A DNA stretch of 64,000 nucleotides from Ostreococcus lucimarinus (taxonomy: Eukaryota), in assembly GCA_000092065.1 (NCBI GenBank), contig CP000597.1; one strand, given 5' to 3'. Of this stretch, positions 11,016 to 49,506 are shown piece after piece. The stretch's first letter is position 1, and each line of letters begins with the position of its first letter. The position numbers and the translations under genes were made by a program. The notes below the pieces were generated by a model that saw nothing but the letters and a program-made list of their open reading frames with translations, had not been told where the DNA came from and searched no databases.

Positions 11016-12293
11016 TTAGTACACCTCGACGTGCCATTGGCCCTTCTTCTTGAGGCCTTCGAGCCATTCTTCGTAGCTGATGCCCTTCTCCTTGCACACG
11101 CCTTCCAACATGGACAAGATGCCCGGCATCATACCCTTGAGACCGCAGAAGTACATGTGAGCGCCGCCGTCGAGGAGTTGGAACACTTGGTCCTTGTACT
11201 CTTCAACCTTGTCTTGGATGTACATCTTACCACCGTTCTTGTTGGTGTCTTCGCGGGAGAGCGCGTAGTCGATGCGGAACTGATCCGGGAAACGCTTGGC
11301 GCACTCTTGGAACTCGTCGTCGTACAACTTGGCGTCAGAGTTAGCGACACCCATGAACAACCACGCGAGACCCTTGAATTCCCAGTTCGGGACGTCTTCG
11401 AGGAAGAATCGGCGAATGTAGGAGCGCATCGGGGCGATACCGGTACCGGTGGCGACCATGATGACCGGCGTCGCCGGGTCCTTCGGCAAGAGCATGACTT
11501 GACCAGTCGGGCCAGTCATCATGACTTCGGCACCCGGCTTGGCGTCGCACAAGAAGTTGGAGCAGATGCCCTTCTTGGCCGGATCTTCGGCGTTCATTTC
11601 CGGATCCCAGTACGTCGCACGGCGAACGCACAAGGTCGCGGTTTGGCCGTCGTAGGAGTCGCCGTAACGGGACGACGCGATGGAGTACAAGCGCACGCCG
11701 TGCGGCACTTCCTTACCCTTGGAGTTCACCTTGGTACCCGGCGGGATGACACCGTACGATTGACCTTCCCAGAACGGCATCTTACCACCGTGTTCGATGA
11801 TGATGTGGCACGTTTCGCCAGTCGCGTTCGGGCCGACGATGCGCTCGACGGAGCGCACCTTACCCGTGAACGGTTCCTTGTTCTTGAACGTGTTCAACGG
11901 AAGCGGCATGTCCTCGAGCTCGAGCGGCACCTTCGCGCGTCCCTTCGGGTCGATGTTCTTGTTCGCCGTCGGCGAGCACTGCAAGCCGAGACCGTAGTCC
12001 GTGCCTTCGGCGCGCACCACCGCCGTCGCGCGGCGCGCCTTGGTTTGGCGCGCCGCGTTGATCTTCGCGCCGGCGAACGCGGAAACCTATCGCACCGCGT
12101 CATCACGCGCGTCACATCGTCAGTCTCCGCGCGCATCGCATCGCGCGCCTTCGCATTCATCCCCCTCGCGCCTCCGCGCGCGTCTCGTCGCGCGCGTCGC
12201 GCTCGCCTCGCGTCTCGCCGGGTTCCAAAGCCCGATCGCCCGCCCGCTCGGTCCATCGCGCATCGCTCGGCGCACCTTCGCGGAAACGTTCAT
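11016..12293 (-). CDS. petH: Ferredoxin-NADP+ reductase, chloroplast (FNR/PetH), two coding exons: complement(join(11016..12086,12276..12293))
   Basis: Near full-length match to plant-type FNR ([48 protein letters not shown]). The tool ORF starts at an internal GTG and lacks a Met. The transit-peptide end ([28 protein letters not shown]) is in frame just after a TAG|GTT acceptor. An 18-nt micro-exon ATGAACGTTTCCGCGAAG (MNVSAK) sits at 12293..12276. Donor AAG|GTGCGCC, branch ACTGACGA, acceptor GATAG. Confidence 0.85.
12087..12275 (-). other. Spliceosomal intron between FNR start micro-exon and main exon (189 nt, phase 0)
   Basis: Donor GTGCGCC (minus strand), branch GAGACTGACGATG 32 nt upstream of the acceptor AG at 12088-12087. 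An in-frame TGA and TAG inside the intron explain why the ORF track splits here. Confidence 0.55.
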
Positions 12294-16659: not shown

Positions 16660-17909
16660 ATGGTGGCGACGAACAGCGTGGATTATCCGTTTAGCGTCAG
16701 GGGAGGAAGACGGGAGCAGGAACGGGTGAAGGCGAACGTGTTGGCGCCGTACGTGGTGGATGGGAAGTATTTCAAGTGCGTGATTTGAGACGAGCGAGCG
16801 AACGCGCGCGAACGCGAAGACGTTTGAATTCGAAACGGCGACGACGGATTCGAGGATGAGAATTCGGAGGGTGATGCGACGCGTCGTCGATCGTGATGGG
16901 CGTCGCGAGATGTTGGTGATCAAACGCGGGCGCGCGCGGGCGTTGGGGGGATTTCGCGACGTGGATGGGTGGCGGTACATTTACAAGTTTGAGAGACTGA
17001 CGACGCGTTTAAAACTCGTTCAACCTTCGCAGCGTGGCGATTCGACAACAGCTCGTCGATTGGATGGCGGAACAGCACAATGCGATGTCGCTCACGGATG
17101 AGACGTTACATCTTGCGATCGTGTACGTGGATACGTTCTTGACGCATCGAGTTCCGGATACGTTTTTGCAGCGACACGGAAGCGGGAGCGAGCCTGTGGA
17201 AGCCAAGCCGCTGCGCGCGCTCGACGGCGACAGAGTTTTGCACGCTATGGATGCGCAACATCCTTTGTGCAACAAGCTCAAGCGCTTGGGCATCACGTGT
17301 GTATTCGTTGCGGCGAAAGTGACGGAAGTAACGACGCCTTCGGCGAACGTTTTCGCGCGCTATGCACAAGTGTCGTCGTTCACGCGCGAGCAGCTCTTGC
17401 TCGCCGAGCGCGCGCTGTTGCGAGAGATGAACTACGCGCTGATCCGCCCGACGGCGTTTTCGTTCGCCGAAGCCTACGTCGAGAGCGTTTTGCGCTCGAC
17501 GAATCGACTGCGAAGATTCCCCGATCGAATCGACTTTTGCGGTTCCGGGTTCGCCGACTACGGTGACATGCCGACGTGCTTCAAGGAGACGACGTACTAC
17601 TTGGTCGAGCTCTCGGCGTACGGACACGAGGGATTGAAATTCGCGCCATCACTCCTCGCCGCCGCCGCTGTGGCTTCATCGCTATCGTACTTGAAGATCA
17701 CTTGGGACGAGGTGCCGATCCTGGAAGAAGTCGTCGGATACACTTCAGACGAGCTCAAAGAACCGATTGATTTCTTGCGACGCGTTGCGCGAGACGCGCA
17801 AATGATCGAGGAGTGGGGCGAAGGTTTGATGGTGAACGAGAAGTATGAAGGATGTTCAAACTTTGTTTTCAGTGAGATTAACTCGGAGGGTGACCCGACG
17901 AGACGCTGA
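16660..17909 (+). CDS. Cyclin (two cyclin folds), two exons: join(16660..16775,17033..17909)
   Basis: Cyclin-box motifs (RQQLVDWMAEQHNAMSLTDETLHLAIVYVDTFL; second fold MPTCFKETTYYLVELSAYG...). The tool ORF starts at an internal GTG with no Met. The upstream exon has ATG at 16660 (MVATNSVDYPFSV...VVDGKYF), donor CAA|GTGCGTG at 16776, branch ACTGACGA at 16995-17002, and acceptor CTTCGCAG at 17032. The phase-2 junction gives ...KYFN|VAIRQQLVDW. Confidence 0.7.
16776..17032 (+). other. Spliceosomal intron in cyclin gene (257 nt, phase 2)
   Basis: GTGCGTG donor, ACTGACGA branch 31 nt upstream of a pyrimidine-rich CAG acceptor. An in-frame TGA lies 4 codons into the intron. Confidence 0.5.
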
Positions 17910-19480: not shown

Positions 19481-21787
19481 TCATTGGCCCGCGCGCTCGT
19501 CGCGAGCGGCGGCTTCTTCAGCCTTCATCTTGGCGATCTTCCTCGACATGCCGAGAGTTTTGACGAGCGCCGGCGGGGCGTTGACCGGAGCGCCGTTGTT
19601 GTCGTCGCAGTCCTTGCAGTAGCAGAGCAAGATGGTGTCGATACCGAGTTCGACGATGGACATGAAGACGTTCGCGATGATGAAGGCAAACAAGACGACG
19701 ACGATGACGATGAAGAGCGGGGAAGAAACCTTTTCGTCACCGTAGTTGAACGTGTCGGCGTCGAGCATCAAGAAGGCGATCGTACCAGAGCCCAAGGCGA
19801 CGACCAGCTTGCCGAGGACGAGCATGATGTCGCCGACGATGTTGACTGTGGCGACGGCCGCGACGTTCTTCACCATGAGCGCCAAGGCGTTCCAGGCAGA
19901 GTTGCAGAAGGACGTGCCTTCGATGGCGGTCATGATGTACGCGTTGCGGTTCAACCACTCGATCGTCTTTTGCAAGTACCACAAGCAGTATTCCACGTAG
20001 TACCCGACGTACTTGATAATCTTGCTGTCCTTGGACAACTTTTTCATGCGGTGCACGATGAAGCGCACGATGAGTCGAATGAACTGCAACAAGGCGACGA
20101 AGAAAGAACCGACGGCGGCGGTACCGGTGTGGTACCACATCATCCTTTTGGTCGAGGTGATAATCGGTTTGTTCTTAAGGCCGTTGTAGTTACCGCCCTT
20201 GAAGTAGTACTGCACAAAGACGCACGCGATGATCAAGTAGCACATGGCGACGATCCACTGCGAGCCCCAGAGGAAGCCAAAGACGTAGTACGCGAGAGCG
20301 CCTTGCAAGTTGCGGTCCCAGACGGTCGCGTAACCGCAGTGGCAGTCATCAGTCGGCGTCGTCGAAGGAGTGGCGCAGTACATGTACGGCGGTTCGCCCG
20401 CCGCCAAGGTGCAATCTTGTTGCTTGACTTCACCCGCCGCGAACAAGTAGACGAAGGTGATGAGCCAGTAGACGAAGAGCAACACCATGGCAACGGCGGG
20501 CAAGATCGGGAACAGAGTCAACTGCGGCATCTTTCCGAGAGCACCCGTGGCAACCTTGATGACGCCGACGGCAACCTTGACGCGACGGAGCATCAACAAG
20601 GTGAAGAGGAAAATGACGCAGGTGAGCGCCGTCGAGATGTACGCGAAAATCTTGAGCGTGTCTTGACCGCTCTCAGCCGGATCGGCGTAGTTGGTGATAG
20701 AAGCCGACGCACTATCGGAAACCTTGCTCACGTACGCGTTGACTTGATCGGAACCGATGACACCGGCCTTGAGGTACAAGTAAATGGTGACCACGACGGC
20801 GAGCGCGTTCACCGAGAAGAGCGTGGTGTACGCGAAGACGCTGGTGAAGTATCGGAGGAAGAACAAGAAGGCGATGCTCAAAACGATCGGACAGGCGCCA
20901 CCGGCGACGACGACAACCTTCCAACCAGTGGTGAAGTCATCGATGTAGCGTTCCACCGTGGCGAGCGGACCAGAGAGCGCCTTGTCGATTTCGTCGCCGA
21001 GCAACTTGGTGTAAGTCCCCAAATTGCCGGAGCTGTAACCGGTGCCGAAAGGATCGACGTACGGACGTACTCCTACTGTCTCGGGCTCCTCGCGTTCCGC
21101 CTTCGTTTCTCCTTGCGAATCGCCGTCACCAAAGAGTTGGCAAGTGTAGAACGTGTTGACGCTCTCGTAGAGCACGGGGTAGCACGGCCCCATCCACTTG
21201 AGCGAGGACGTTTTTTGGGGGCCGCTCAAGTACTGGTAGTAGTCGTAGTTGTCCGCCACCCATTGATTCTTGTCGTAGTTCGGTTGGGACGCGATAGTGA
21301 CGTCTTCGGGGTAATCGCACACAAACGCAACCGAGCTGGCCGTCATTGTCGGCTTCGGGCATTCCTTCAAGCAAATGCTCTTCGCGTCGCGCAAGTTGTA
21401 CTTACGCGTCGCGCTCGCCGATTGATCGGTGTGCACACCCGCCGCCCAAGCGAGTTCGCCCGGGTTCATGAAATACCGCGTCTTGAACCCATCGTTCTTC
21501 CCTTGATCGCAAACTTCGCCGCGGTAATCGGTGCCGAAGAGCAAAATCTTCGGTTTCCCCGTGCCGACGCCGTAAAAGCCCAGCACGAGCATCGCGATCC
21601 AAAACGCGATGAAAACGATCAGAAACAAAATATCCGTGCATTTTCGCGGTCCTTTCATGTGTTGATCCAACTCATCCTTATCGCTGTGCGTCGAATCGTC
21701 GCGCGCGTTCGCGTCGTCAGTCGCGCGTTCGTCGCCACCTGGCGCCGCGTCTCCTCCCTCCTCCCCCCTCCCTCCATTCTCACCCAT
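19481..21787 (-). CDS. Choline transporter-like protein (CTL/SLC44 family)
   Basis: N-terminal GPRKCTDILFLIVF motif, multiple TM helices, and the conserved C-terminal block (WYHTGTAAVGSFFVALLQFIRL ... NAYIMTAIEGTSFCNSAWNA ... VATVNIVGDIMLVLGKL). Candidate starts are ATG 21787 (acidic low-complexity N-terminus) or ATG 21658 (MKGPRKCTD). A branch-like GCGACTGACGACG plus CACAG lies between them. Confidence 0.8.
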   Translation of the reverse strand: MGENGGRGEEGGDAAPGGDERATDDANARDDSTHSDKDELDQHMKGPRKCTDILFLIVFIAFWIAMLVLGFYGVGTGKPKILLFGTDYRGEVCDQGKNDGFKTRYFMNPGELAWAAGVHTDQSASATRKYNLRDAKSICLKECPKPTMTASSVAFVCDYPEDVTIASQPNYDKNQWVADNYDYYQYLSGPQKTSSLKWMGPCYPVLYESVNTFYTCQLFGDGDSQGETKAEREEPETVGVRPYVDPFGTGYSSGNLGTYTKLLGDEIDKALSGPLATVERYIDDFTTGWKVVVVAGGACPIVLSIAFLFFLRYFTSVFAYTTLFSVNALAVVVTIYLYLKAGVIGSDQVNAYVSKVSDSASASITNYADPAESGQDTLKIFAYISTALTCVIFLFTLLMLRRVKVAVGVIKVATGALGKMPQLTLFPILPAVAMVLLFVYWLITFVYLFAAGEVKQQDCTLAAGEPPYMYCATPSTTPTDDCHCGYATVWDRNLQGALAYYVFGFLWGSQWIVAMCYLIIACVFVQYYFKGGNYNGLKNKPIITSTKRMMWYHTGTAAVGSFFVALLQFIRLIVRFIVHRMKKLSKDSKIIKYVGYYVEYCLWYLQKTIEWLNRNAYIMTAIEGTSFCNSAWNALALMVKNVAAVATVNIVGDIMLVLGKLVVALGSGTIAFLMLDADTFNYGDEKVSSPLFIVIVVVLFAFIIANVFMSIVELGIDTILLCYCKDCDDNNGAPVNAPPALVKTLGMSRKIAKMKAEEAAARDERAGQ

Positions 21788-22455
21788 CGCGCGCGTCCGC
21801 GTCCGCGCCTCGTCCGCGCGCGATCGCGTCTCCATCGTCCTCGCGCGCGTCTCCATCGCCGCGCGTCCGATCCGCGCCGCCCGCGCGTCCGCGCGCGCGA
21901 CTCCCCGGACGATTCGATGCACGAATTTCGCGACGATTCTCAACGATCGTCGCCGCTCGCGCGCCTCTCGCGCGCCTCTCGCGCGTTCGCGCGCGCGTTC
22001 GCGCGCATCGCGCGAGCGCGCGTCCGTCGCCCGCGTCGCACGCGTCGCGCGCACCTCATGACGACCGTGATCGCGCGTCGCGCGCGTGTGCGGGCGCGCG
22101 CGACGACGCGCGTCGCCCGCGGCCCCGCGCTGTCGCGCGATCACGCGTTCGAGCGCCGAAAACGCCCATGTAAAACGACGAGGCGCGCGCGAACATAAAC
22201 GGTCGGTCGCCGTCGCGCGACGCCGCACGCGCGAGTCGTAAAAATTCAATTGGAAATTGTACAAATGTTATACGCGTTCGAGCGCGAAGAACGCCCGCGT
22301 AAAACGACGAGGCGCGCGTCGGCGTCGCGTCGGCACTCGGCGACGGTCGACGACGACGGCGCGCGCGATGGGCGACGGCGACGCGCGCGCGAGCGACGGC
22401 GCGATGGACGACGCGGTGCGCGGCGCGCGCGCGCGATCGGTGGTGCGGTGCGTGC

Positions 22456-22457
<2 letters not shown>

Positions 22458-22524
<67 letters not shown>
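22458..22524. repeat. (GAC)n microsatellite, about 21 units with one interruption
   Basis: gacgacgac... run in the divergent region upstream of the ABCA gene. It is possibly intronic, lying between a GTGCGTG donor-like site at 22447 and the ACTGAC/CGCGCAG module at 22609-22646. Confidence 0.85.
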
Positions 22525-22525
<1 letters not shown>

Positions 22526-22671
22526 AAACGACGCGACGCGACGTTTGACGAGGCGAAACGACGCGACGATGGCGGCGCGCGCGGGCGCGGCGCGCGCGAG
22601 ACGGTGGGACTGACGACGACGCGAAACGACGCGGCGACGCGCGCAGACGAGGGCGACAGTTTCGCGCGCTG

Positions 22672-25600
22672 ATGCGGAAAAATTACCTGCTGAAGACGAA
22701 GGGCGTGCTGCGGTGCTGCACGCTGTGCGAGATCTTGGTGCCGGTGATTTTCTTGGGGCTCATGTGCCTGCCGAAGGCGTTGGTGCCGGATTCGAGGACG
22801 AACGATGAGCTGTCGAGGCCGTACGCGCTCGCGGGGGGGATCGAGAGCGTGAACCAGAGGACGCCGAGGGGGTTTCGGTTCGTGGTGGCGCCGGCGAGCG
22901 CGGAGACGCTGGAGCTCGGACGGCGAGCGTACGTGCACGCGATGTGCTTGAGCGAGCGGTCGATCGCGAAGGATAGGAGCTATGCGAACGATTTTGAGGA
23001 CGGGAAAAAGAATTTGTTGAATTTGATGGATGATCAGGTGCAGGCGTCGTCGAACGTCGCGACGGGGGTCAAATCGGCGTTCGCCGCGCTGTCGTACGAC
23101 GTCACGGCGATGCCCGCGGCGTGTTCGGATGCGTGCCTGCAGGACTCGTCGTGCGTGACGAGTACGTGGGACGCTATTTTAGACGAAGTCGTCGTGACCA
23201 AGGCGGATGAAGCCGCGGCGATGGCGTACGTCGCCAGTCGTCCCGGGGAAGTTTTCGCGTACGCGCGTTTTGATTCGGGAGGTAACGTCGCGAGCACGCG
23301 CGCGTTCGCGTACACGCTGCGCTTGAATTCGACGAACGTTGCGAACGAGGACAAGGCGGTGGCGGCGTTCATGGAGGACGACTTTACCGGGAGATGGGAC
23401 AGCGCGTACAACACAGATGATTGGGCAAAGTACAAGTCGTTTGCGTATGCGCAAAACGCGTTCGACGCGGCGATCATCGACATGAAGGACGGAGGCAGTG
23501 CGTATAGCGTGACGTTAGACACATCTCTCAAGCCATTTCCTTGGTTGGGGTTCGACTACAACGTCGGTGGCGTCATCGCCGCAGCCTTTTACGGCTTCGT
23601 CGGCTCGCTCGCGTTTCAAACCAACGTCGTCCTCGTCATGAAATCCATCGTCGTTGAGAAGGAATTGCGATTGCGAGAAGGGATGAAGATGATGGGTATG
23701 TCAAACACGATGTTCTGGTGGTCTTGGTTCTTCACGCACTGGCTTTCGGCGATGATTTCCGTCGTCTTGATCACGTTGGTCGGGATTTACCCGTTTTCGT
23801 ACACGAATCAATTCATTCAATTCATCTTTTACACGTTTTGGGTGGCGTCTTTAACGCTTTGGAACTTTTGGATCTCGACATTCTTTTCCAAATCGATCAC
23901 CGCCACCATAGTCGGCTGTTTCGCATACGTCCTCACCATGGTTCCTTCCATCGCGGTCCGCATCACGCAGCCCGAGGGCAGCGGCGCTTGGATCTTAGCG
24001 TGCATATTTCCATCCGGGGCGATGAACATGTGGGGCGCGGCGCTGGCTATTCTGGAGGTGAATAAGAAGGGTATCACGATGGAGACATTCAACGAAGACG
24101 TAACGCTCAAGGGGAACGTCACGTGCGCTGGTATCTTAGGCATGGTGATTTTCGATTGCTTATTTTACGCGTTTCTCACCTTTTACTTCGACGCCGTGTG
24201 GAAAACCGAATACGGCACGCGCCAGCCTCCTTGGTTTCTATTCACGCGTAAGTACTGGTGCGGTGACGCGTCGAAGGTCATCGATGATGAAACGCTTGGA
24301 ATGCACGAGCAAGAGTCTGGGGACGCCGTCGAGCCGCTCACGAAGCAACAGATGAAGTCAGCCAGCGTCGTCGTTCGCGGTTTGACGAAGAAGTTTGGCG
24401 ACGAAGTCACTGCGGTGGATAATTTGAGTATGACCTTTGTTCCTGGCCAAGTGAGTGGATTACTTGGTCACAATGGTGCTGGTAAAACGACGACGATTAG
24501 TGTTCTCACGGGTATGATTGAACGGACCTCTGGTCGAGCGACTATTGACGGGTACGACACCAAAACCCAGATGCGAGAAATTCGCGCCGGTCTCGGTATC
24601 TGCCCTCAATTCGACGTCCTTTGGCCGACACTCACGGTGCGCGAACATTTACAATTATACGCCGCATTTGCGGGTATGCAAAAAGAGGATGTAGAACGAG
24701 AACTCAAGCAAGTCGTGGAAGAGGTTGCGCTGACGGAGAAGATTGACGCGAACTCGAAGGATCTATCGGGTGGGATGAAGCGTAAGCTCTCGCTCGCTAT
24801 TGCGTTTATCGGCAGTCCGTCCGTAGTGTTTCTCGACGAACCAACGTCTGGGATGGACCCTTACTCGCGACGATTCACGTGGGACGTCATTCGCAAACGA
24901 GCCGCCAACTGCACAGTCTTGCTCACGACGCACTTTTTGGACGAGGCTGATTTGCTGTGCGATCGAGTCGCCATCATGAGCGCTGGTCATCTTGCATGCA
25001 TCGGTTCGCCACTATTCCTCAAGTCTAAATTCGGCACTGGTTATCTGCTCACGTTTGCGCGTCATAGTCGCGCGTCATCGACGCAAATCGCGTCGATGAC
25101 GCAGCACAACTCGAACGCCATGCTGCGAGTGATTCAACACTTCGTACCCAAAGCCGTTGTTCACAGCGACGTCGGCGCCGAGCTATCGTTTTCTTTACCA
25201 TTCGAGTCTACCGGCGACTTTTCTGCGTTATTCAAGGCTCTCGATGAGCAGATCGGGAATTTAGGGTACGCAAGTTACGGCATCTCGTGCACCACGCTCG
25301 AGGAGGTATTTCTATCTCTCGCACATGGGGTGAAGGCGGCGTCCACGGCGCAATCGAAAGGCAAGGTTGTGGACTTAGACGCACCCGTGGAAGAAGCCGA
25401 CGAATGTGAAGACCTCGATGCAAAATTGGTCGCTGGCAACCGCAAGGACATTCGCCAAACCTACGCGAAGGGTGGTGCCTTACTCAGAATCCAACTCAAA
25501 CGCTTGCTCTGGAAGCGTTGGCTCAATTGGCGTCGCAGCATGCGGTCGATATTCATGCAACTTCTCGTACCTTGTTTGCTCGTCGTGCTCGCGCTTTATT

Positions 25601-28113
25601 TGACCACGTTGAGTTTTGAACCTGGGAGCACGATTTCGGCGAAAGAAATCAGTCGAAAGCTACTCAATAACAAGAAGACCCTCGTGACGTACTCCCCTTC
25701 GGCGACTGAGGCGGTCGCCGTCACGACGAACTTGATGACAGACACTTACGCGTTACGCTCTCAGTATCAACCCGAGATTTCGTGTATGTGCAACTGCTTA
25801 GCGAAAGATCAAACGATCACGATGTCTGCCATGACGTGTTGCGCGTATAACAGAACCATTGAGTCAACGTGTCGAGTAGCGGCATTGGCACGTCTTGCGG
25901 GCGGGACGTATTGCGTCAAGTCTCCAAAAGGCTACGATGTACAAAGAGACATCGTTTCTATGGGGCTATCGTGCTCGTCCATGATAGATGACAGTATCGA
26001 TAGTTACTTACTAGACGTCCAAGAGCCATCGGTGCCTTGTGACATGCAACCGACGGGATCGCCGTGCGACGTCTTGTACGTTGACGAGTACGACGGCACG
26101 CGCTATAGTCACACGCTGTACGGACATCAAACAGCCTTACACGGTATGCCGACCGTCATCAACAACGTGAATAGTGCTATTTTGCGCAAGCGCACGTCCG
26201 ATTCTAGTGCGAGCATCACGACTACGATTCACTGGTATCCGAGCGCGGTGAATACACTGAAGGAAGGAGACATCGAAGAGCCGGACAACTCTGGAACTAC
26301 GTTCATCGTTTCCATGTTCGTCGTCATGGGGCTCGCTGTTCTCAGTGCTGGGATTTCAATCTTTCCAGTGTACGAACGATGCAATAACTCCAAACACTTA
26401 CAGCTCGTGAGTGGAATCGATAAACGAATTTATTGGCTGGCGCACTACGTCGCAGACGCCATACAGCTCGTTATTCCGTTCGCCGTCATCGTCGTCATTT
26501 TTGCCGGTTTCAATGCGTCTTACTTCCAAGGTCAACTCGGGGCGATCACTGTTTTGTTGGGTTTTTTCATGTTGACCTCTATTCCACACGCGCATTATCA
26601 AGGATTTTGGTACACTAGCGAATACTACACCTTTGTTGGGCAAATCGGAACAAACACCACCGTTGGCGTGATCACCACCATCGCCGGTATCGTCACCGAT
26701 GCCCTGAAAGACTTGAATAAAGAGACGTTGTTGGTGAGCAAAATCTTCAATTACACGTTTCCGCTCATCATTCCGCACTTTAGTTTCGGGAAAGGTCTAT
26801 ACGACATCGCACAAAATGGTTTGGACAAGACGCGGAAAATTTTCCGCGAGGATTGCATGTGCCTCGTCCCCGTCGTACCAAAGGGTTCTTTCAACGTCAT
26901 CGCCGACGATTTGGGCTATTTGATCGGAACATTTTTCATGTGGAGCGCTTTGTTGTTTTACAAAGAGTATAAAGAGATTTTCGCAAGTTGGATACTGATG
27001 AAACGTGGAAACTCGCAAGAGGTATCGCCGAGCGTCGACGAAGATGAAGACGTGCGAGCCGAGCGCGAACGCGTGCTCTCAGGAGACATCGACGGTGATG
27101 GCGTCATCATGGACCGCTTATCCAAGACGTACAAAGGCTTGTCAGCGAGTTCTACAAAGCTCGCCGTTCGAAATCTCAGCGTGGGTCTACATCGCGATCA
27201 ATGCTTTGGTTTGCTCGGCATCAACGGCGCGGGAAAGACGACGACATTCAAGATGCTCACGGGCGAGTTCCCACCATCTGCGGGTGACGCGATCATTCAA
27301 GATCGAGACGGTGCGTCTCACAGTGTGCGTACTGATCTTAACGACGCGCGACGATTGATGGGATATTGTCCTCAGTTCAACGGCTTGCAACCAAACTTTA
27401 CCGCACGCGAGCACATTGAATTCTACGCCGCCATTCGCGGAATGCCGACGGAGATGATTCCGCGCGTGACGGAAGATCTGCTGCAGCGTATGGGTTTGAC
27501 TTTGTATGCCGATAGACAAGCTGGAACATACAGTGGAGGCAACAAGCGTAAGCTTTCTGTCGCGTTGTCGCTCGTCGGCGAACCAGAAGTCGTCTTCTTG
27601 GATGAACCATCAACTGGTATGGATCCCGAAGCGAGACGGTTCATGTGGGACGTGATCTCGTCCATGATGGTTGGACGCACGATTGTTCTCACATCGCACT
27701 CTATGGAGGAGTGTGAGGCACTCTGTAATCGCATCGGTATCATGGTGAGTGGCGAGTTCAAGTGTCTTGGCTCCTTGCAGCACTTGAAGTCGCGCTTTAG
27801 TGAAGGATACTCCATCGATCTGCGCTTTTCCGACGGAAAAGGAAACGCCGTTATGGAAGCGCTACGAGCCAAACACGGAGACATTGGAGCGGAGATAGTA
27901 GAAACACACGCCACAGAAATTAAACTTCGCGTGATGAATCCCGAAATGAAACTTTGGCGTATTTTTGACGCCGTCGAAGCTTTGAAGCAGTCGGACGACG
28001 ACGGCGCAAGAATTGACGACTACTCCGTGTCGCAGACGACTTTAGAGCAGGTCTTCATCCGATTTGCAAAGGAGCAAACCGAGGAGATACACGCGGCACC
28101 GGGATTACAGTAG
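22672..28113 (+). CDS. Full-size ABC transporter, ABCA subfamily (two TMD-NBD halves)
   Basis: 1813-aa intronless ORF with ATG at 22672. N-terminal ABCA-type TM1 and large extracytoplasmic loop; two NBDs with Walker A (GHNGAGKTT / GINGAGKTT), signature LSGGMKRKLS / YSGGNKRKLS and Walker B (VVFLDEP). Confidence 0.9.
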   Translation: MRKNYLLKTKGVLRCCTLCEILVPVIFLGLMCLPKALVPDSRTNDELSRPYALAGGIESVNQRTPRGFRFVVAPASAETLELGRRAYVHAMCLSERSIAKDRSYANDFEDGKKNLLNLMDDQVQASSNVATGVKSAFAALSYDVTAMPAACSDACLQDSSCVTSTWDAILDEVVVTKADEAAAMAYVASRPGEVFAYARFDSGGNVASTRAFAYTLRLNSTNVANEDKAVAAFMEDDFTGRWDSAYNTDDWAKYKSFAYAQNAFDAAIIDMKDGGSAYSVTLDTSLKPFPWLGFDYNVGGVIAAAFYGFVGSLAFQTNVVLVMKSIVVEKELRLREGMKMMGMSNTMFWWSWFFTHWLSAMISVVLITLVGIYPFSYTNQFIQFIFYTFWVASLTLWNFWISTFFSKSITATIVGCFAYVLTMVPSIAVRITQPEGSGAWILACIFPSGAMNMWGAALAILEVNKKGITMETFNEDVTLKGNVTCAGILGMVIFDCLFYAFLTFYFDAVWKTEYGTRQPPWFLFTRKYWCGDASKVIDDETLGMHEQESGDAVEPLTKQQMKSASVVVRGLTKKFGDEVTAVDNLSMTFVPGQVSGLLGHNGAGKTTTISVLTGMIERTSGRATIDGYDTKTQMREIRAGLGICPQFDVLWPTLTVREHLQLYAAFAGMQKEDVERELKQVVEEVALTEKIDANSKDLSGGMKRKLSLAIAFIGSPSVVFLDEPTSGMDPYSRRFTWDVIRKRAANCTVLLTTHFLDEADLLCDRVAIMSAGHLACIGSPLFLKSKFGTGYLLTFARHSRASSTQIASMTQHNSNAMLRVIQHFVPKAVVHSDVGAELSFSLPFESTGDFSALFKALDEQIGNLGYASYGISCTTLEEVFLSLAHGVKAASTAQSKGKVVDLDAPVEEADECEDLDAKLVAGNRKDIRQTYAKGGALLRIQLKRLLWKRWLNWRRSMRSIFMQLLVPCLLVVLALYLTTLSFEPGSTISAKEISRKLLNNKKTLVTYSPSATEAVAVTTNLMTDTYALRSQYQPEISCMCNCLAKDQTITMSAMTCCAYNRTIESTCRVAALARLAGGTYCVKSPKGYDVQRDIVSMGLSCSSMIDDSIDSYLLDVQEPSVPCDMQPTGSPCDVLYVDEYDGTRYSHTLYGHQTALHGMPTVINNVNSAILRKRTSDSSASITTTIHWYPSAVNTLKEGDIEEPDNSGTTFIVSMFVVMGLAVLSAGISIFPVYERCNNSKHLQLVSGIDKRIYWLAHYVADAIQLVIPFAVIVVIFAGFNASYFQGQLGAITVLLGFFMLTSIPHAHYQGFWYTSEYYTFVGQIGTNTTVGVITTIAGIVTDALKDLNKETLLVSKIFNYTFPLIIPHFSFGKGLYDIAQNGLDKTRKIFREDCMCLVPVVPKGSFNVIADDLGYLIGTFFMWSALLFYKEYKEIFASWILMKRGNSQEVSPSVDEDEDVRAERERVLSGDIDGDGVIMDRLSKTYKGLSASSTKLAVRNLSVGLHRDQCFGLLGINGAGKTTTFKMLTGEFPPSAGDAIIQDRDGASHSVRTDLNDARRLMGYCPQFNGLQPNFTAREHIEFYAAIRGMPTEMIPRVTEDLLQRMGLTLYADRQAGTYSGGNKRKLSVALSLVGEPEVVFLDEPSTGMDPEARRFMWDVISSMMVGRTIVLTSHSMEECEALCNRIGIMVSGEFKCLGSLQHLKSRFSEGYSIDLRFSDGKGNAVMEALRAKHGDIGAEIVETHATEIKLRVMNPEMKLWRIFDAVEALKQSDDDGARIDDYSVSQTTLEQVFIRFAKEQTEEIHAAPGLQ

Positions 28114-28146
28114 ATATTGTACAGTATATTGCAACGAAATAAATCG

Positions 28147-29793
28147 CTACCCAGACGCCGCAGGCGTCTCCAAGCAAACACCTCTGGCGTCGAGCTTTCT
28201 CGCGCGCGTCATGGACGCGGGGTGCAGCAACGCGTTGATTTCCGCCACCGTTGCGTAAGTCGCAGCTATTTCAGCGACAGGTCGCCCGGTGGCCAACGCC
28301 TCTTTCGCCACCGCCGAAGATTTTTTGTATCCAATCAACGGCAAGAGAGCAGTGACGATGCCGATGGAGTTTTCGACGGATTTCTTGCACACTTCCTCGT
28401 TCGCCGTGATGCCGTCGATACACTTCACGCGGAGAGTGTTAAGTCCACGCTCCATCATATCCATATTATTCAATAAATTGTAAACGATCAACGGTTCAAA
28501 AACGTTCAACTGCAACTGCGCCGCCTCCGACGCGTGGGCAATCGAAGCGTCTGTGCCCATGATTTGAAAACACACCTGGTTCATCACTTCTGGGATGACG
28601 GGATTGATTTTACCTGGCATGATAGAGCTTCCAGGGGCAACTGCAGGAAGATTGATTTCATTAAACCCACATCGCGGGCCGCTGGACAGCAACCGCAAAT
28701 CGTTGCAGATTTTTGAAATCTTCACGGCGACGCGGCGCAAGATGTTAGAAAACAACAGAAAACTCGACGTCGAGCTCGATGCCTCAATAAAATCTTGCGG
28801 TGAGCGTAACGGAAGTCCGGTGAGCTCCGATAATGCCGCCACAGCCTCCTCAGAAAACGCCTCGTCGGCGCAAATCGAAGTCCCGATCGCGGTGCCGCCG
28901 AGATTCATCTCATACATTTGGTCGACGTTTCGTTCCAGAAACGTCAAATCCGCCTCTAGCGTCGCCGCAAACGAGTGAAATTCTTGACCCAGCGTCATTG
29001 GTACCGCATCTTGAAGCTGTGTGCGTCCCATCTTGATTATTCCTTGAAACTCGTCACCCTTCGCGCGCAAACTGACGATCATCTTTTTCAACGCCTCGAC
29101 GACGATGCCGTGCTTCAACACTACCGCGAGTTTTGCGGCGCTCGGGTACGCATCGTTCGTGCTTTGACACAAATTTACGTGATCATTCGGATTTACCACG
29201 CTGTACTCGCCGATGGGCACCCCCAAAAACCGCGCCGCCAAATTCGCGATCACCTCGTTCGCGTTCATATTCGTCGACGTCCCGGCGCCGCCCTGAATGA
29301 CGTCCACCGCGAAGTGATGATGATGTTCCTCCGAATCGATCAGCTCATCGCACGCGAACGATATAGCGCGATACACATCATCCGGCAGCAGCCCTATCTT
29401 CCGATTCGCCACCGCGCACGCCTTCTTCGTCAACGCCAGCGCTCGTATGAATTCCGGGTACTTTCTCAGCGTCGTCCCCGTGATGTGATAATTTTCCATC
29501 GCCCGCGCCGTGGCGATCCCGTACAGCGCCTCCGACGGTATTTCCATCGACCCGAGCAAATCGCTCTCCGTGCGGTGCGTTTTCACGTGCTCGAACCGCA
29601 CCGAGGCGTACGCGCGACGTCGTAACGCTTTTTCCCCATCTTGTCCCGCCAAGTGCCCAGCGGTCGTTACGCCGCTCCACGGCGCCTCATCGCGACGCGC
29701 GCCCTCGAGCGCGCGTCCGCGGCGCAGCATAAATATCGCGCTTTCATCGCGCGCCAGCGCGCGCAGCGCTCGCGCGCTCGAGCGCGCGAACAT
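28147..29793 (-). CDS. aspA: Aspartate ammonia-lyase (aspartase, AspA-type member of the fumarase/aspartase class II family) with N-terminal organellar-type extension
   Basis: Closer to AspA than to FumC: QGGAGTSTNMNANEVIAN, NPNDHVNLCQSTNDAYP, IIKMGRTQLQDAVPMTLGQEF, KISKICNDLRLLSSGPRCGFNEINLP and GSSIMPGKINPVIPEVMNQVCFQIMG (AspA has NPVVPEV; FumC has NPTQCEA). First ATG at 29793; the tool ORF starts at a TTG at 29811. Confidence 0.8.
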   Translation of the reverse strand: MFARSSARALRALARDESAIFMLRRGRALEGARRDEAPWSGVTTAGHLAGQDGEKALRRRAYASVRFEHVKTHRTESDLLGSMEIPSEALYGIATARAMENYHITGTTLRKYPEFIRALALTKKACAVANRKIGLLPDDVYRAISFACDELIDSEEHHHHFAVDVIQGGAGTSTNMNANEVIANLAARFLGVPIGEYSVVNPNDHVNLCQSTNDAYPSAAKLAVVLKHGIVVEALKKMIVSLRAKGDEFQGIIKMGRTQLQDAVPMTLGQEFHSFAATLEADLTFLERNVDQMYEMNLGGTAIGTSICADEAFSEEAVAALSELTGLPLRSPQDFIEASSSTSSFLLFSNILRRVAVKISKICNDLRLLSSGPRCGFNEINLPAVAPGSSIMPGKINPVIPEVMNQVCFQIMGTDASIAHASEAAQLQLNVFEPLIVYNLLNNMDMMERGLNTLRVKCIDGITANEEVCKKSVENSIGIVTALLPLIGYKKSSAVAKEALATGRPVAEIAATYATVAEINALLHPASMTRARKLDARGVCLETPAASG

Positions 29794-29866
29794 TTCGATC
29801 GCGCGTCGCAAAGTCGCGAATTCCGCGCCCGCGCCACGTCAGCACATCACACGCCGACGCCGACCG

Positions 29867-30655
29867 ATGCCGACCGTCGCGCGCGCGCCGGCGCGATGCG
29901 CGCGCGCGACGCGCGCGACCGCCGGCGCGACGCGCGCGCGACGCCGCGACGCGACGCCGCGAGGGACGACGGCGCGACGGCGCGACGAAATCGTCCGCCG
30001 CGGCGCGCGCGATCGCGCCGACGACGCCGCGGCGGCGCCGGTCGACGCGTTCGACGCGGTGAAACGCGGCGCGGCGTCGCTTGCGTTGGCGCTGACGCTC
30101 AGCGCGCACGCGTGCGCGCCCGCGAGCGCGCGATTGGAGGGGGTGAACAACCCGGCGCTGCTGCCGCCGGGACCCGCGGCGCCGGTGCTCGACGTCGCGG
30201 GATACCTCACGAAATCCGACGTCGCGCGCCTGACGACCGAGGTCGAGGCCCTGGAGAAAGACACGGGCGTGCGGTTGCGCGTGCTCGCGCAGGCGTACCC
30301 GCAGACGCCGGGATTGGCGGTGAAGGAGTACTGGAACGTGGACGACGACACCGTCGTCTTCGTCGCCGATCCGGGCTTGGGGAACATTTTAAACTTTAGC
30401 GTCGGTGGGAATCTCGATTTAGAGATCCCGCCCTCGTTTTGGACGCGGTTGGCGAATAAGTACGGCACGAAGTTTTACTGGAGCGAACGCGGGGAGGAGG
30501 CGAGCATCTCCGCCGCGGTGCGAGCCATCGACGCGTGCGCGCGCGAGCCGTCGGGGCGCGCCAAGTGCTCGAAAATTATGGAGTACGACGACGGCGGCGC
30601 CGGCGGATTCACCGACGGCGACGCCCCCAAGGGTTTAGGCAAGTTTTTTAAATAA
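29867..30655 (+). CDS. TPM-domain protein (TLP18.3/Psb32-like), predicted thylakoid-lumen targeted
   Basis: TPM/MOLO-1 domain (VLDVAGYLTKSDVARLTTEVEALEKDTGVRLRVLAQAY...). The N-terminus looks bipartite: an Arg-rich transit-like region, then a twin-arginine (RRRDEIVRRG) and hydrophobic AASLALALTLSAHACAPASA with an AxA site. ATG at 29867; the tool ORF starts inside the overlapping aspartase gene. Confidence 0.6.
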   Translation: MPTVARAPARCARATRATAGATRARRRDATPRGTTARRRDEIVRRGARDRADDAAAAPVDAFDAVKRGAASLALALTLSAHACAPASARLEGVNNPALLPPGPAAPVLDVAGYLTKSDVARLTTEVEALEKDTGVRLRVLAQAYPQTPGLAVKEYWNVDDDTVVFVADPGLGNILNFSVGGNLDLEIPPSFWTRLANKYGTKFYWSERGEEASISAAVRAIDACAREPSGRAKCSKIMEYDDGGAGGFTDGDAPKGLGKFFK

Positions 30656-30922
30656 TTTTTCGCTTCGTTTCGCTTCGTTTCGCTTCGTTCCGCGCTCGGC
30701 GTCGCCGCGAGCCGCGCGCGCCTTCGCGCCGCCGCGAAAACCCACACACGAGGGTTTTAATGACGCTCCCATCGAACGCCGACCCGTCGCCCCCGCACAC
30801 TTCGTCGCCCGCGCGCGCGAACCGCTCAAAAGTTCGCACGGTTTTTACCGCACGACCTCGTTCCGCTCGATCGCCCTCGCGCTCGTCGCACAGACGCACA
30901 GACGCGCACTCATCGCGCCATC

Positions 30923-31306
30923 ATGTTCACCCGCTCGCCGACCGCGGCGACGATCAAAACGCCGCTCGTCGCGCACCGCGCGACGCGCCGCACCGCGCGA
31001 CGCGCGGTGACCACGGCGGGGATGAAATCTTCCGAGTGCCAAGCCATGGGCGACCGCGTGCTCGTGCTCGCGGACAAGGCGGAGAGCCAAACCAAGGGTG
31101 GGCTGTTTTTGGCGGGCGGCGCGGGCGCGGGCGGACCGGGATCGAGCGTCACGGGAAAAGTGGCGAGCGTCGGTGAAAACGTGAAGGGAATCAAAAAAGG
31201 GGACGCGGTGCTGATCAATGGATTCTCGGGGACGGAGGTTGAGTTCGAGGATGGTGAGAAGGGGAAGTTTATCAACGCCGTCGACGTGTTGGCGGTGCTC
31301 GGATAG
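30923..31306 (+). CDS. Cpn10/GroES-type co-chaperonin with organellar presequence
   Basis: GDRVLV...QTKGGLFLAG...GKVASVGENVKGIKKGDAVLINGFSGTEVEFEDGEKGKFINAVDVLAVL matches the single-domain GroES fold. ATG at 30923 with an Arg/Thr-rich presequence. Confidence 0.75.
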   Translation: MFTRSPTAATIKTPLVAHRATRRTARRAVTTAGMKSSECQAMGDRVLVLADKAESQTKGGLFLAGGAGAGGPGSSVTGKVASVGENVKGIKKGDAVLINGFSGTEVEFEDGEKGKFINAVDVLAVLG

Positions 31307-31477
31307 ACGAGAGACGTCGCGCCGAAAACGCCCGCACGATCGCCGATCGAATGATTTGTCAATAAATACCACAGTTAAATGATTTTTAAAGCGCGCTTCG
31401 CGTTCGTTTTGTGATTAGATTACATGAATGACGCGCGCGGTGTAGTGATGATGAATCGAGAAACCGACGCCGACTGC

Positions 31478-32661
31478 TTAATGGTCGGCGTCCGGGTTGT
31501 GGAAGTGGAACTTGCTCGCGCCGAGCGCTTCCATGACGGAATCGAAGATACCGAATTGACCGGCGGTGAGAGTACCGATCATGACGCAACGCGCGGCCAA
31601 ACCTTGGGTGCAGAGCTTGACAACGCCAGTCTCCGCGGCGATGCGGCCGAGACGCGTCACAATGGAACCGGTGCCCCCCGCGCCGGCTTTGTTCACCTTA
31701 GACAACAAGGTATCGGCGGGGTGGGAGATGATGGCGGCGACGACACCAGCGACGACACCAGAAGACAGAGAGACGGAGACGTTTTCAGAGCTCGTGCATT
31801 CCTTGGGAGACTTGCCCATGGACTCGTAGATGGCTTCGGCGGCGCGCCCTTGGACGGCGAACTTGGCCATGGTGTACGGCACTTGCTTGGCCAGAATCGG
31901 ACCGAAACCAGAGTAGAAACCGCTGATGATGCCTTCTTCGCTCGCCATCTTCGCCATGGCGCTGAGAGTGGACGGCGCGTACGTCGGGTTGGACACCAAA
32001 CGGATGCGCGTCGCCTCGAGCGGGCACAAGAAGACGTCGGCGATGAACTCGGCCACCGCGGCGGAGCCGAGGTAGATGGTGTTACGGTTATTCCACGCCT
32101 CCCGTTCGGTCATGCTTTGCGCGGCGTTGATCTTGAAGTATTCAACACCACCGAACTTGAACCAACCTTGGATAAAATAACCCACCGCCGTCGGACCGAG
32201 ACCGGTGAGCAAAGCCCCGGCGCCTTCCTCGGCAATCACCTTGGAGAAGCCAGACACCATACCGCCGTACTTGGACGGATCCAATTGCATGCGCGTCTGT
32301 ACCGATATAAAATTAAATCACGCTCGTCAGTCGATATTCGCACCGCACGCGACGTCGCGCGCGCGTCCGTCGTCGTCGACGCCCCGTCGAGCGCTCGCTC
32401 GCTCGTCGATTCATCCATCGCGGTTCGCGCGCGCGCCTCCGAGCGCACCTTGACCACATCCACCGGCGTCACCGCCCCGTGCGTGAACCCACAGCAGATC
32501 CCGCCCGAGAGCGCTCCCCGAAGGTAATAATCCAGCGTGTACTCCTTCTTCGACGCCGCCGCGAACGCCGGATTCGCGTTTCGTTCCTTCAGCGCGCCCA
32601 GCGTCGCCGTCGGCGCGTACAGGCTCGCCGGCGTCGCCCGCTTGATGAATTCTTGAAGCAT
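31478..32661 (-). CDS. Mitochondrial phosphate carrier (SLC25A3/PiC, mitochondrial carrier family), two coding exons: complement(join(31478..32296,32449..32661))
   Basis: Exon 2 matches PiC repeats 1-3 (TRMQLDPSKYGG..., GFGPILAKQVPYTMAKFAVQ). Exon 1 (ATG 32661) encodes ...DYYLRGALSGGICCGFTHGAVTPVDVVK, matching PiC helix 1 (TPLDLVKCRMQVD). Donor GTCAAG|GTGCGCT at 32448, branch TCGACTGACGAG, acceptor GGTACAG at 32297. Confidence 0.85.
32297..32448 (-). other. Spliceosomal intron in phosphate-carrier gene (152 nt, phase 0)
   Basis: GTGCGCT donor, ACTGACGA branch 29 nt upstream of an AT-rich tract (TTTAATTTTATATCGGTACAG). The splice restores the conserved VDVVK|TRMQ junction. Confidence 0.65.
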
Positions 32662-33060
32662 CTGCGTCGTCGCGCCGTCCGAACGTTCGCGCGCGCGTCA
32701 GTCGCTCCGCGCGCGCGTAAGATGCGCGCGATCTATCGGGACACCGCGCGCGCGCGATCGCGTCGCTCGCGTCGCGCCCTCGCGCCGCGCGCGCGCGTCG
32801 CGCGCGTCGATCGCGCGCGCGTCGTCGCGTCGCCCTCGCGCGCGCGCGCCGCGTCGAAACGCGCACCGTGATGGTTCGTCGAGGAGTGTCGCGCGCGCCG
32901 CGCGTCGTCGCCGCCGTCGTCGACCGCGTCCGCGTCGCCTCGCGAACGACGCGCCGAGGTTCAAATCGTCGCGTCGATCGACGGCGCGAGGTTCGAGGCG
33001 CGACCGGCGAACCCGGACCGACCGACGGACCGACCGACGCGCGCGGCAGACGCGCGCGCG

Positions 33061-36652: not shown

Positions 36653-37140
36653 CTACTTCGCGTTCGGGTTGGCGGCCAAATAACTCACCGCCTCCGGAAT
36701 CGACTGTATCTTATCCGCCTCCGCGTCCGGGATCTCCACCGCGAATTCCTCCTCCATCGCCATGACCACCTCCACGGTGTCCAACGAATCCAGCCCGAGA
36801 TCGCCCGCGAACGCCGACGTCGCCGTCACCTTGCTCGCGTCCACCTTTGCGAAGTTCTTCACCACGCTCACCACGCGCGCCGTGACTTCGTCCTCGTTCA
36901 AAAATCCCGCGCCGTACGCCCGGCACGCGCTCTGCGTCGTCGCGCGCCCCGCGTTTCCATCGTCAGTCTCGACGCGTAGGGTTGATCGATCGTCCATCGT
37001 TCGCGCGCGCGTCTTCGCCGTCGCGCGCGTCGCTCGGCGCGCGCGTCGCCGTCGGCGCGCACCGCGATCGTTTGAGGCGCGCGTCGCCCGCCTCGAAGCG
37101 CGTCGCGCCACGCGCGGTTCGTGAGCTGTCGTCGAAACAT
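36653..37140 (-). CDS. Mitochondrial acyl carrier protein (ACP/NDUFAB1-like), two exons: complement(join(36653..36931,37063..37140))
   Basis: Exon 2 has the ACP core (FAGDLGLDSLDTVEVVMAMEEEFAVEIPD). The tool ORF reads through an Arg-rich antisense-like stretch. A separate-frame exon 1 (ATG 37140) encodes a textbook presequence, MFRRQLTNRAWRDALRGGRRAPQTIA. Donor CG|GTGCGCG at 37062, branch GAGACTGACGATG, acceptor ACGCAG at 36932, joining to SACRAYGAGFLNEDE... Confidence 0.75.
36932..37062 (-). other. Spliceosomal intron in ACP gene (131 nt, phase 0)
   Basis: GTGCGCG donor; ACTGACGA 30 nt upstream of the CAG acceptor. The two exons are in different frames, as expected for a 131-nt intron. Confidence 0.6.

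Positions 37141-48042: not shown

Positions 48043-49506
<1,464 letters not shown>

Follow-up and report, generated by a model that had tools for sequence, protein, structure and literature searches.

Start-proximal spliceosomal introns and very small first exons in a 64-kb window of Ostreococcus lucimarinus

In four genes of a 64-kb stretch of the Ostreococcus lucimarinus genome (the window, meaning the whole 64,000 nucleotides (nt) analysed), the sequence ACTGACG followed at short range by CAG stands just upstream of an ATG. The genes encode a phosphate carrier (PiC), FNR, a choline-transporter-like protein (CTL), and ABCA. The original prediction, made from the sequence alone, read these modules as the 3' ends of widespread introns in untranslated 5' regions (5'UTRs), with the 3' splice site regularly placed 0-25 nt before the start codon. 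The modules are the 3' ends of ordinary cis-spliced U2-type spliceosomal introns that carry the constrained signals of this species: a GTGCG(T/C) donor, a GACTGACG branch site, some 29-35 nt free of AG, and a (CG)CAG acceptor, as is typical of its genes outside chromosome 2. The explanation that we favour, at a probability of about 0.88, is that they belong to canonical O. lucimarinus introns located at gene starts, behind a tiny first exon where that exon has been mapped.

The window comes from the nuclear genome of O. lucimarinus CCE9901, a prasinophyte green alga: the HAD-family open reading frame (ORF) at 33061-33882 is identical to XP_001422140.1 of that strain, and genomic Logan contigs match the window at 100% identity. 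The genome here is compact, GC-rich, and poor in introns. Because the ORF tools applied were bacterial, the gene models were put together manually on the basis of reading frames, homology, transcripts, and orthologs; the transcript evidence comes from public environmental cDNA (Logan, JGI, and SRA contigs).

All the motifs named in the original prediction are present in the window, a few of them 1-2 nt away from the positions given. ACTGACG by itself is not enriched (15 seen in the window against 9.8±3.0 expected), whereas the composite ACTGACG-N(22-34)-CAG occurs nine times against 1.23±1.20 expected, an approximately 7-fold enrichment, and none of 100 shuffles reached nine or more. The longer branch motif GACTGACG occurs 13 times against 4.35±2.04 expected (13 or more in 0 of 100 shuffles). 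At 11 of these 13 sites the first AG lies 28-36 nt past the branch A, a spacing with a background of 10.4% (binomial p 9.5e-10; Fisher p 2e-9 against permuted 8-mers). GACTGACG is also a good predictor of introns: 11 of the 13 sites fall inside introns of the window, and the other two, at 34528 and 63454, lie within uninterrupted coding sequence. Six CTGAC sites (19393, 36457, 44062, 29072, 34530, and 63459) were rejected as introns, being coding, antisense, or without a donor or AG.

The window holds 13 introns of 95 to 371 nt. Their donors are GTGCG in ten cases, GTACG in two, and a GC donor (GCGCGTG) in one. One of them is in a 5'UTR; ten interrupt the coding sequence within its first 215 nt; the remaining two, both in a cyclin gene, are somewhat further in. 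The start-proximal introns of the four focal genes all carry GACTGACG and GTGCGTG-like donors (GTGCGCG in PiC and CTL, GTGCGTG in ABCA, GTGCGTC in FNR), and the AG used lies 32-39 nt past the branch A. Excision from the mature mRNA is seen for both introns of PiC and both of FNR, in cDNA contigs, and for the CTL intron, in the transcript ORF P0228. The exons and introns concerned are as follows (in sequences, a caret marks a splice junction or, in promoter contexts, the start of transcription).

12087..12275, minus strand: FNR intron 2, 189 nt; removed in cDNA contigs L016-L019
12294..12544, minus strand: FNR intron 1, 251 nt, behind codon 4 in phase 0; removed in L016-L019
12545..12576, minus strand: FNR exon 1, 32 nt, consisting of a 20-nt 5'UTR and ATGGCGCTCACG; from cDNA
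21684..22054, minus strand: CTL intron of 371 nt, following the first codon in phase 2; skipped by P0228
22055..22089, minus strand: CTL exon 1, 35 nt, consisting of a 30-nt 5'UTR and ATGAG; from transcript ORF P0228 and conservation
22368..22447, plus strand: coding part of the putative ABCA exon 1, 80 nt, 26 codons and 2 nt, MGDGDARASDGAMDDAVRGARARSVV-R; from ortholog comparison
22448..22646, plus strand: putative ABCA intron, 199 nt, phase 2; junction conserved in four lineages
32297..32448, minus strand: PiC coding intron, 152 nt, GTGCGCT ... CGACTGACGAG ... ACAG
32662..32866, minus strand: PiC 5'UTR intron, 205 nt; spliced out in L022-L027
32867..32887, minus strand: PiC exon 1, 21 nt, wholly non-coding, ACTCCTCGACGAACCATCACG; from six cDNA contigs

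The phosphate carrier bears out the idea of a 5'UTR intron whose acceptor abuts the ATG. The intron 32866..32662 is a true 5'UTR intron, with the donor GTGCGCG at 32866-32860 (not beginning at 32868, as first proposed), the branch GACTGACG at 32703-32696 (ACTGACG 32702..32696), and a CGCAG ending at 32662; the start codon begins at 32661, directly after the 3' splice site. Exon 1 contains no ATG, and none occurs between the divergent HAD gene and the donor. The exact spliced protein of 343 amino acids (aa), which equals NCBI XP_001422245.1, is encoded on 14 short transcript contigs. Six of these (L022-L027), from six SRA runs, start with the SMART template-switch oligo (..GTGGTATCAACGCAGAGTACGGG), followed by extra Gs and ACTCCTCGACGAACCATCACG, and then continue straight into ATGCTTCAAG, joining window positions 32867 and 32661; the transcription start site (TSS) is the A at 32887. 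Two of them, L022 and L024, terminate in poly(A). Removal of the coding intron restores the carrier motif PVDVVK^TRMQLDP. The ortholog in a related Ostreococcus (L015) has the same layout, CAAG^GTGCGAC ... CGACTGACAC ... AATAG^G-ATG, and L013 keeps the branch-acceptor module 5' of the ATG (GACTGACGAAAG ... TGACAG^GCACGG-ATG) on a contig that stops before any donor, while the body of the 5'UTR intron has diverged in both. L013 and L014 were discarded as transcripts: L013, from a species that does not have the PiC coding intron, has an unspliced upstream module and is therefore genomic, and L014 is truncated at its 5' end. One further contig, L020 (Logan SRR28369218), equals window 32662..30643, a spliced PiC cDNA that runs on through the opposite-strand Cpn10 gene, which suggests overlapping convergent transcripts or read-through.

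In FNR, the acceptor proposed at 12294 is indeed spliced in cDNAs, but the intron that it ends is probably not a 5'UTR intron, since exon 1 already has an ATG in frame, at 20 nt from the cap (ATGGCGCTCACG^ATGAAC..). Intron 1 (donor GTGCGTC, branch GGACTGACGAAT, acceptor GCGCAG^ATG) most likely interrupts the coding sequence behind codon 4, in phase 0, and the first AUG would be the one used, giving the N-terminus MALT^MNVSAK (MALTMNVSAK.., P0180); intron 2 has the donor GTGCGCC, the branch GAGACTGACGATG, and the acceptor ATAG. The 366-aa protein MALTMNVSAKVSAF.. is represented in the protein collection solely by short JGI/Logan transcript contigs. Two of the cDNAs (L017 and L019) read from the template-switch oligo into ACTCTCGAACGACGCGCGCG-ATGGCGCTCACG^ATGAACGTTTCCGCGAAG^GTTTCC, L018 has the same sequence and junctions from the mRNA 5' end without the oligo, and L017 ends in poly(A), so that for FNR, as for PiC, both splicing and the structure from cap to poly(A) are shown. 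The junctions are 12545^12293 and 12276^12086, and the TSS is the A at 12576. A model beginning at the second Met has no exact match in the protein collection, and the FNR protein of a Micromonas transcript continues upstream of the aligned Met (MAAQVFATPMLAKSSFAGA). In L016 (JGI 3300028290), positions 1-476, upstream of the FNR cDNA, are AT-rich and do not match the window; this contig was probably assembled as a chimera, with the junction at a CGCGCGCG run.

For CTL the acceptor was again placed correctly (the CAG ends at 21684), and no donor had been given. The donor is ATGAG^GTGCGCG at 22054, directly behind a start codon at 22059-22057; the branch GCGACTGACGACG lies at 21722-21715 (ACTGACG 21721..21715), CACAG ends at 21684, and exon 2 starts at 21683. 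When ..GTCGTCATGAG^GTGCGCGC at 22059/22054 is joined to this acceptor, the product reads in frame as MS^DKDELDQHMKGPRKCTD. The splicing is shown by the transcript-derived ORF P0228 (source "merc"), which starts MGTRARRAITVVMSDKDELDQHMKGRRKCTD (also written MGTRARRAITVVMSDKDELDQH): its N-terminus is exactly the translation of ATGGGG, window 22089..22055, and window 21683 onward, where ATGGGG would be the template-switch oligo's tail. Read without splicing, the genome would encode ..RDDSTHSDKDEL, which P0228 does not match. An acidic N-terminus had been considered as continuous coding sequence upstream; it is intron sequence, and P0228 skips it. The alternative start at ATG 21658, 25 nt downstream of the acceptor, and with it the 5'UTR intron, also fell, given that the ATG of exon 1 is invariant and that more distant lineages have Leu at the 21658 codon. 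Searching JGI contigs with the N-terminus of CTL gave 32 loci, and CATGAG^GTGCG is invariant in all 20 whose contig includes the donor. ATGAG^GTGCG is kept in the window and in five further lineages (roughly 95, 80, 62, 60, and 52% identity); a sixth, L043 (about 54%), stops before the donor and keeps the branch, acceptor, frame, and Leu. Every lineage, L043 included, has a (G)AGACTGAC branch, a YAG acceptor, and a leader length in exon 2 that keeps ATG-AG^N in frame. The codon aligned to ATG 21658 is CTG or TTG (Leu) in all lineages at about 80% identity or less, this ATG being confined to the closest O. lucimarinus-like lineage. A donor GTGAGA at 21783 was rejected, as it gives an out-of-frame product ending in TGA, and four start variants of CTL found no exact match in the protein collection. 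The intron also contains the palindrome GCCACCTGGC (21734-21743, with the E-box-like core CAGGTG, CACCTG, or CAGCTG), which has one copy in the window and stands 5' of the branch in the window and in four of the five further lineages; it may be an intronic regulatory element.

In ABCA the evidence is comparative. The acceptor at 22646 and the intronic position of the (GAC)n microsatellite, both part of the original prediction, agree with it; ATG 22672 as the start codon, 25 nt past the acceptor, does not, since L015 and L047 have Val there and a conserved peptide extends upstream. Of the GTGCG donor candidates at 22416, 22443, 22448, and 22452, the one at 22448 (GTGCGTG) fits: between it and the branch GGGACTGACGACG at 22606-22618 (ACTGACG 22609..22615) lies (GAC)n, and CGCGCAG ends at 22646. 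The upstream exon, ATG 22368..GGTGGTGCG^GTGCGTG, joins 22647 in phase 2 and reads ..SVVR^RGRQFRALMRKNY. In L015, the codon at the position of ATG 22672 is GTG (FRALVRKNY), the conserved peptide reaches the acceptor TCTCAG^G, and an upstream exon ATG..GTCGTGAG^GTGCGAG likewise joins in phase 2. Two more lineages, found adjoining CTL, read ..AVVR^RGRQFRALM (L033, the 80% lineage, which keeps Met at the 22672 position) and ..RIVR^RSEQFRALV (L047/52/53, donor GTACGACGAC). The upstream ATG exons of L015, L033, and L047/52/53 measure 74, 68, and 80 nt and end ..(V/I)V-(CG/AG)^GT, so that the phase-2 junction (V/I)VR^R..QFRAL is common to four lineages. ATG 22672 is confined to the two closest lineages; it is GTG (Val) in L015 and L047, the two beyond the close O. 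lucimarinus group. In an exhaustive HMMER search, homologs from many plankton groups have QF(R/K)AL(L/V/M)RKN(F/Y).LKTRG with further residues N-terminal to it, and those starting MRKN.. look like truncated calls. These comparisons point to a coding intron after a 26-codon exon in ABCA, not to a 5'UTR intron.

Several features of the ABCA region were noted along the way. The (GAC)n tract (about 22457-22525) lies directly 3' of the donor in O. lucimarinus and likewise in the distant lineage L047 (GTACGACGACGACGACGAC.., on the minus strand of the upstream flank), not in L015. The gene body (window 24000-28000) has a markedly lower GC content, 0.51-0.53, than the rest of the window with 0.58-0.72; at third codon positions its GC content is 0.65, where neighbouring genes have about 0.75-0.85. 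Between CTL and ABCA, in their divergent promoter region, a 47-nt direct repeat (22143-22189 and 22272-22318, 89% identical, ACGCGTTCGAGCGC..GTAAAACGACGAGGCGCGCG) brackets an AT-rich stretch (about 22239-22275), and copies are visible too in the environmental relative L030.

Taken gene by gene, the acceptor positions of the original prediction were right in all four cases, and the reading of the modules as intron 3' ends is upheld by their enrichment, by the spacing from branch to AG, and by spliced cDNAs. Spliced transcripts carry the junctions at 32662, 12294, and 21683; for 22646 (ABCA) no transcript was found. What did not survive is the generalization to widespread 5'UTR introns, with PiC the single example among 13. 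The rule of a 3' splice site 0-25 nt before the ATG is mostly an artefact of the choice of start codon, because the first in-frame ATG past the intron was assumed to be the start. As judged from ortholog comparison, junction and phase are conserved in CTL, ABCA, and the acyl carrier protein gene (ACP, below).

Transcription starts 21-35 nt 5' of the 5' splice site in PiC, FNR, and CTL, the genes with a mapped 5' end, leaving a very small first exon. The coding content of the first exon varies from none (PiC) through ATG plus 2 nt (CTL) and, probably, ATG plus 9 nt (FNR) to a putative 80 coding nt (ABCA). ATG 21658 in CTL is an internal Met codon just past a 3' splice site, and so, probably, are ATG 22672 in ABCA and the second ATG of FNR.

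The mapped TSSs share an initiator-like context, C^A(+1)CTC. The individual contexts are GCGCGAC^ACTCCTCGACGA for PiC (32887, minus strand), GCGCGAC^ACTCTCGAACGA for FNR (12576, minus strand), and CCCGC^ACACGCG for CTL (22089, minus strand). CTL orthologs have GGC^ACTCCGAGG (L034), GGC^ACTCATCG (L039), and GTC^ACTCGTCG (L046) about 35-50 nt before the ATG, and a candidate initiator-like TSS lies at 22335 on the plus strand. As a general TSS motif, GCGACACTC was rejected, showing no window-wide enrichment with one mismatch allowed.

The other introns of the window, found in the genes for a photosystem I (PSI) light-harvesting protein (LHC), a mitochondrial acyl carrier protein (ACP), RPA1, ATG5, and the cyclin, are listed here.

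9019..9378, plus strand: PSI LHC intron of 360 nt, behind codon 46; NCBI XP_001422134.1 is identical to the spliced model
about 16550-16645, plus strand: putative second cyclin intron
16776..17032, plus strand: putative cyclin intron, 257 nt, with GTGCGTG, GAGACTGACGACG, and TCGCAG
36932..37062, minus strand: putative ACP intron, 131 nt, after a 26-codon exon 1 (MFRRQLTNRAW..)
47714..47907, minus strand: RPA1 intron 2 of 194 nt, with donor GTGCGCG and branch TTGACTGACGG; NCBI XP_001422250.1 is identical to the three-exon model
47943-48097, minus strand: RPA1 intron 1, apparent GC donor; same three-exon model, XP_001422250.1
53115..53210, minus strand: putative ATG5 intron, 96 nt, after 13 codons, with GTACGTC, GCGACTGACGACG, and CGCGCAG

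Splicing of ACP, ATG5, and the cyclin gene is predicted from gene structure and homology. For ACP, L015 has an exon 1 of the same length with the M(F/L)RRQLT start, and it keeps the donor GTGCGCGC as well as the branch GACTGACGA and the CGCAG acceptor; no transcript was found. The spliced model begins with the presequence-like MFRRQLTNRAWRDALRGGRR; the NCBI protein XP_001422246.1 (window 36654-37140, minus strand; 114 aa, MDDRSTLRVETDD..) reads through the putative intron. The long ORF of ATG5, in which Pfam finds the ATG5 domains, has no ATG for 109 codons past the acceptor, and the upstream ATG at 53249 is in phase. The third cyclin exon begins within the cyclin box (Pfam). RPA1 intron 1 appears to use a GC donor (..GTGCAG^GCGCGTG) with an ACTGAT branch; the variant with the GT donor of GTGCAG is not in the protein collection and was rejected. 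Also rejected was an intron-like module at 55880-55955 on the minus strand (ATG plus 16 nt, ^GTGCGTC .. GCTGACG .. CGCGCAG; 76 nt, 18 nt from branch point to AG), which lies inside an ORF at 55974 whose frame splicing would break; it is probably a cryptic, unused site.

Some observations weigh against canonical introns at gene starts as the account of all these genes. One 64-kb window is the entire sample. The full-length spliced CTL model, the long ABCA model, and the spliced ACP and ATG5 models have no exact match in the protein collection; NCBI annotates ACP as unspliced, and none of its proteins is an FNR, CTL, ABCA, or ACP model that fits the evidence. For ABCA, a scan of JGI metagenome and metatranscriptome contigs with the spliced junction (BGACGAGGGCGACAGTTTCGCGCGCTGATG) gave 0 matches, and a protein search with the N-terminal 307 aa gave two uninformative ones. 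Lastly, the PiC contig L021 (ENA ERZ4843228) is window 32784..32443 joined to 32298..: the coding intron has been spliced, yet the 3' 123 nt of the 5'UTR intron are present, colinear with the genome from 32784. This may be either occasional retention of the 5'UTR intron or a second start site within it; the first 4 nt of the contig, CGGG against the genomic CGCG, might be a remnant of the oligo, which would hint at an internal start.

L021 is also what would be expected if the small first exons formed a regulated switch, in which retention or an internal start leads to translation from the ATG after the 3' splice site and so to isoforms or tuning of expression; the in-frame ATGs after the acceptors of O. 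lucimarinus FNR, CTL, and ABCA would serve such a switch. Those ATGs are not conserved in more distant lineages, however, and one retained contig stands against six spliced ones, which makes a switch highly improbable. It is very unlikely, too, that all four genes have 5'UTR introns with the ATG 0-25 nt past the 3' splice site as a real start and a regular feature of the gene. That layout holds for PiC, and in FNR, where AG directly precedes ATG, the second Met would be usable if the first AUG, so near the cap, were skipped. Against it stand the in-frame ATG of FNR exon 1 and the upstream extension of the Micromonas protein, the Leu codons and the invariant ATGAG^GT of CTL, by which it is already contradicted, the GTG codons and conserved peptide of ABCA, and the rarity of 5'UTR introns among the 13.

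It is hardly credible that these introns arose by the copying of a mobile introner element. The branch motif of the IE-C introners of Micromonas RCC299 is the same GACTGACG (PMC3879977), but when each of the 13 introns was compared with all the others, they had in common just short CG stretches (30 nt or less) that are of low complexity and not colinear, and no near-identical copies of a repeat family. Their lengths run from 95 to 371 nt, and their positions are common to deeply diverged lineages, which suggests that they are old and not newly inserted. Practically no probability attaches to the modules being unspliced chance matches in CG-rich, GACG-rich intergenic DNA. The unenriched ACTGACG and the two GACTGACG sites in coding sequence are what chance would produce; the enrichment of the composite and the branch-to-AG spacing (p ~1e-9) are not, splice signals are kept while the intron body around them diverges, and spliced cDNAs for three of the four genes refute chance for PiC, FNR, and CTL. 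Spliced-leader trans-splicing was also rejected, as each small exon is found in cis with its own acceptor, 205-371 nt 5' of it, and the sequences differ from gene to gene (ACTCCTCGACGAACCATCACG in PiC, ACTCTCGAACGACGCGCGCGATGGCGCTCACG in FNR, ACACGCGCGCGACGCGCGATCACGGTCGTCATGAG in CTL).

Canonical introns at gene starts thus remain the favoured account, and the question is why they sit there. The 5' placement would most likely come from the tendency of intron-poor genomes in general to retain introns at the 5' end, and we propose that a cap-proximal intron may add a benefit to expression that reinforces its retention. A stronger version, in which cap-proximal introns behind 21-35-nt exons are a selected, systematic part of gene expression in Ostreococcus and not just the remnant of 3'-biased intron loss, we regard as doubtful; the main hint of it is that ATGAG^GTGCG of CTL is invariant down to about 52% protein identity. 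If it were true, splicing beside the cap would be required for efficient expression or for the choice of start site, and annotations would systematically miss small exons, giving wrong N-termini and targeting peptides in a sizeable share of intron-containing genes.

The splice signals themselves are well known. Irimia and Roy (2008; PMC2483917) described 319 O. lucimarinus introns outside chromosome 2 confirmed by expressed sequence tags (ESTs), in which ACTGAC is present in 87% and GACTGACG in 66.5%, the donor is GTGCGTG, which is unusual, the 3' end is CGCAG, and branch point and AG are about 20-35 nt apart. Verhelst et al. (2013; PMC3879977) reported AG^GTGCGT and NCTGAC in Micromonas. Both studies covered introns within predicted coding sequences and reported no position along the gene, and the word UTR does not occur in the former. 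Lanier et al. (2008; PMC2367439) reported that O. lucimarinus genes with high expression have an excess of introns. The introns described here agree with those known from O. lucimarinus and other Mamiellophyceae in their GTGCG(T/C)G donors, (G)ACTGAC(G) branches, branch-to-AG distances of about 29-35 nt, CGCAG acceptors, GC-rich bodies, and confirmation by cDNA. New with respect to the published introns are the 21-35-nt first exons, one intron contained entirely in the 5'UTR, and start codons separated by an intron from the remaining coding sequence (ATGAG^GT); our literature search found no paper on 5'UTR or start-proximal intron placement in Ostreococcus. Plant 5'UTR introns (Arabidopsis, PMC1482700) offer a likeness in that the PiC intron is wholly 5'UTR and near the cap, where plant introns enhance expression; they differ in being usually longer and AT/U-rich, whereas the PiC acceptor abuts the ATG and the mature 5'UTR is 21 nt. 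In other words, the splice signals and introns of this kind were already known, no new kind of element is involved, and the novelty lies in first exons of very small size and in N-termini that are likely mis-set.

Another eukaryote offers a parallel. Saccharomyces cerevisiae is intron-poor, and many of its introns closely follow the start codon or lie in the 5'UTR. Both organisms have few introns, strong and uniform splice signals, a concentration of introns at the 5' end, and an excess of introns in highly expressed genes; unlike the yeast, with its GTATGT and TACTAAC, the green alga has GTGCGTG and GACTGACG, a longer and narrowly set distance from branch point to AG, and GC-rich introns.

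For Ostreococcus, the finding has practical weight for annotation, of N-termini and targeting peptides, and a modest conceptual interest. In at least four genes of the 64-kb window, the N-terminus of the protein hinges on a first exon of a few dozen nt, of a kind that ORF-based and many eukaryotic gene callers overlook. ACP illustrates the consequence: the spliced model gives a typical mitochondrial presequence (MFRRQLT..), and the deposited, unspliced one lacks it. Introns beyond the annotated coding sequence are predicted by the known, constrained splice signals, and single-nucleotide TSSs for O. lucimarinus genes were obtained from public environmental cDNA. With small exons conserved across Ostreococcus lineages, these genes offer a compact system in which to ask why intron-poor genomes retain cap-proximal introns.

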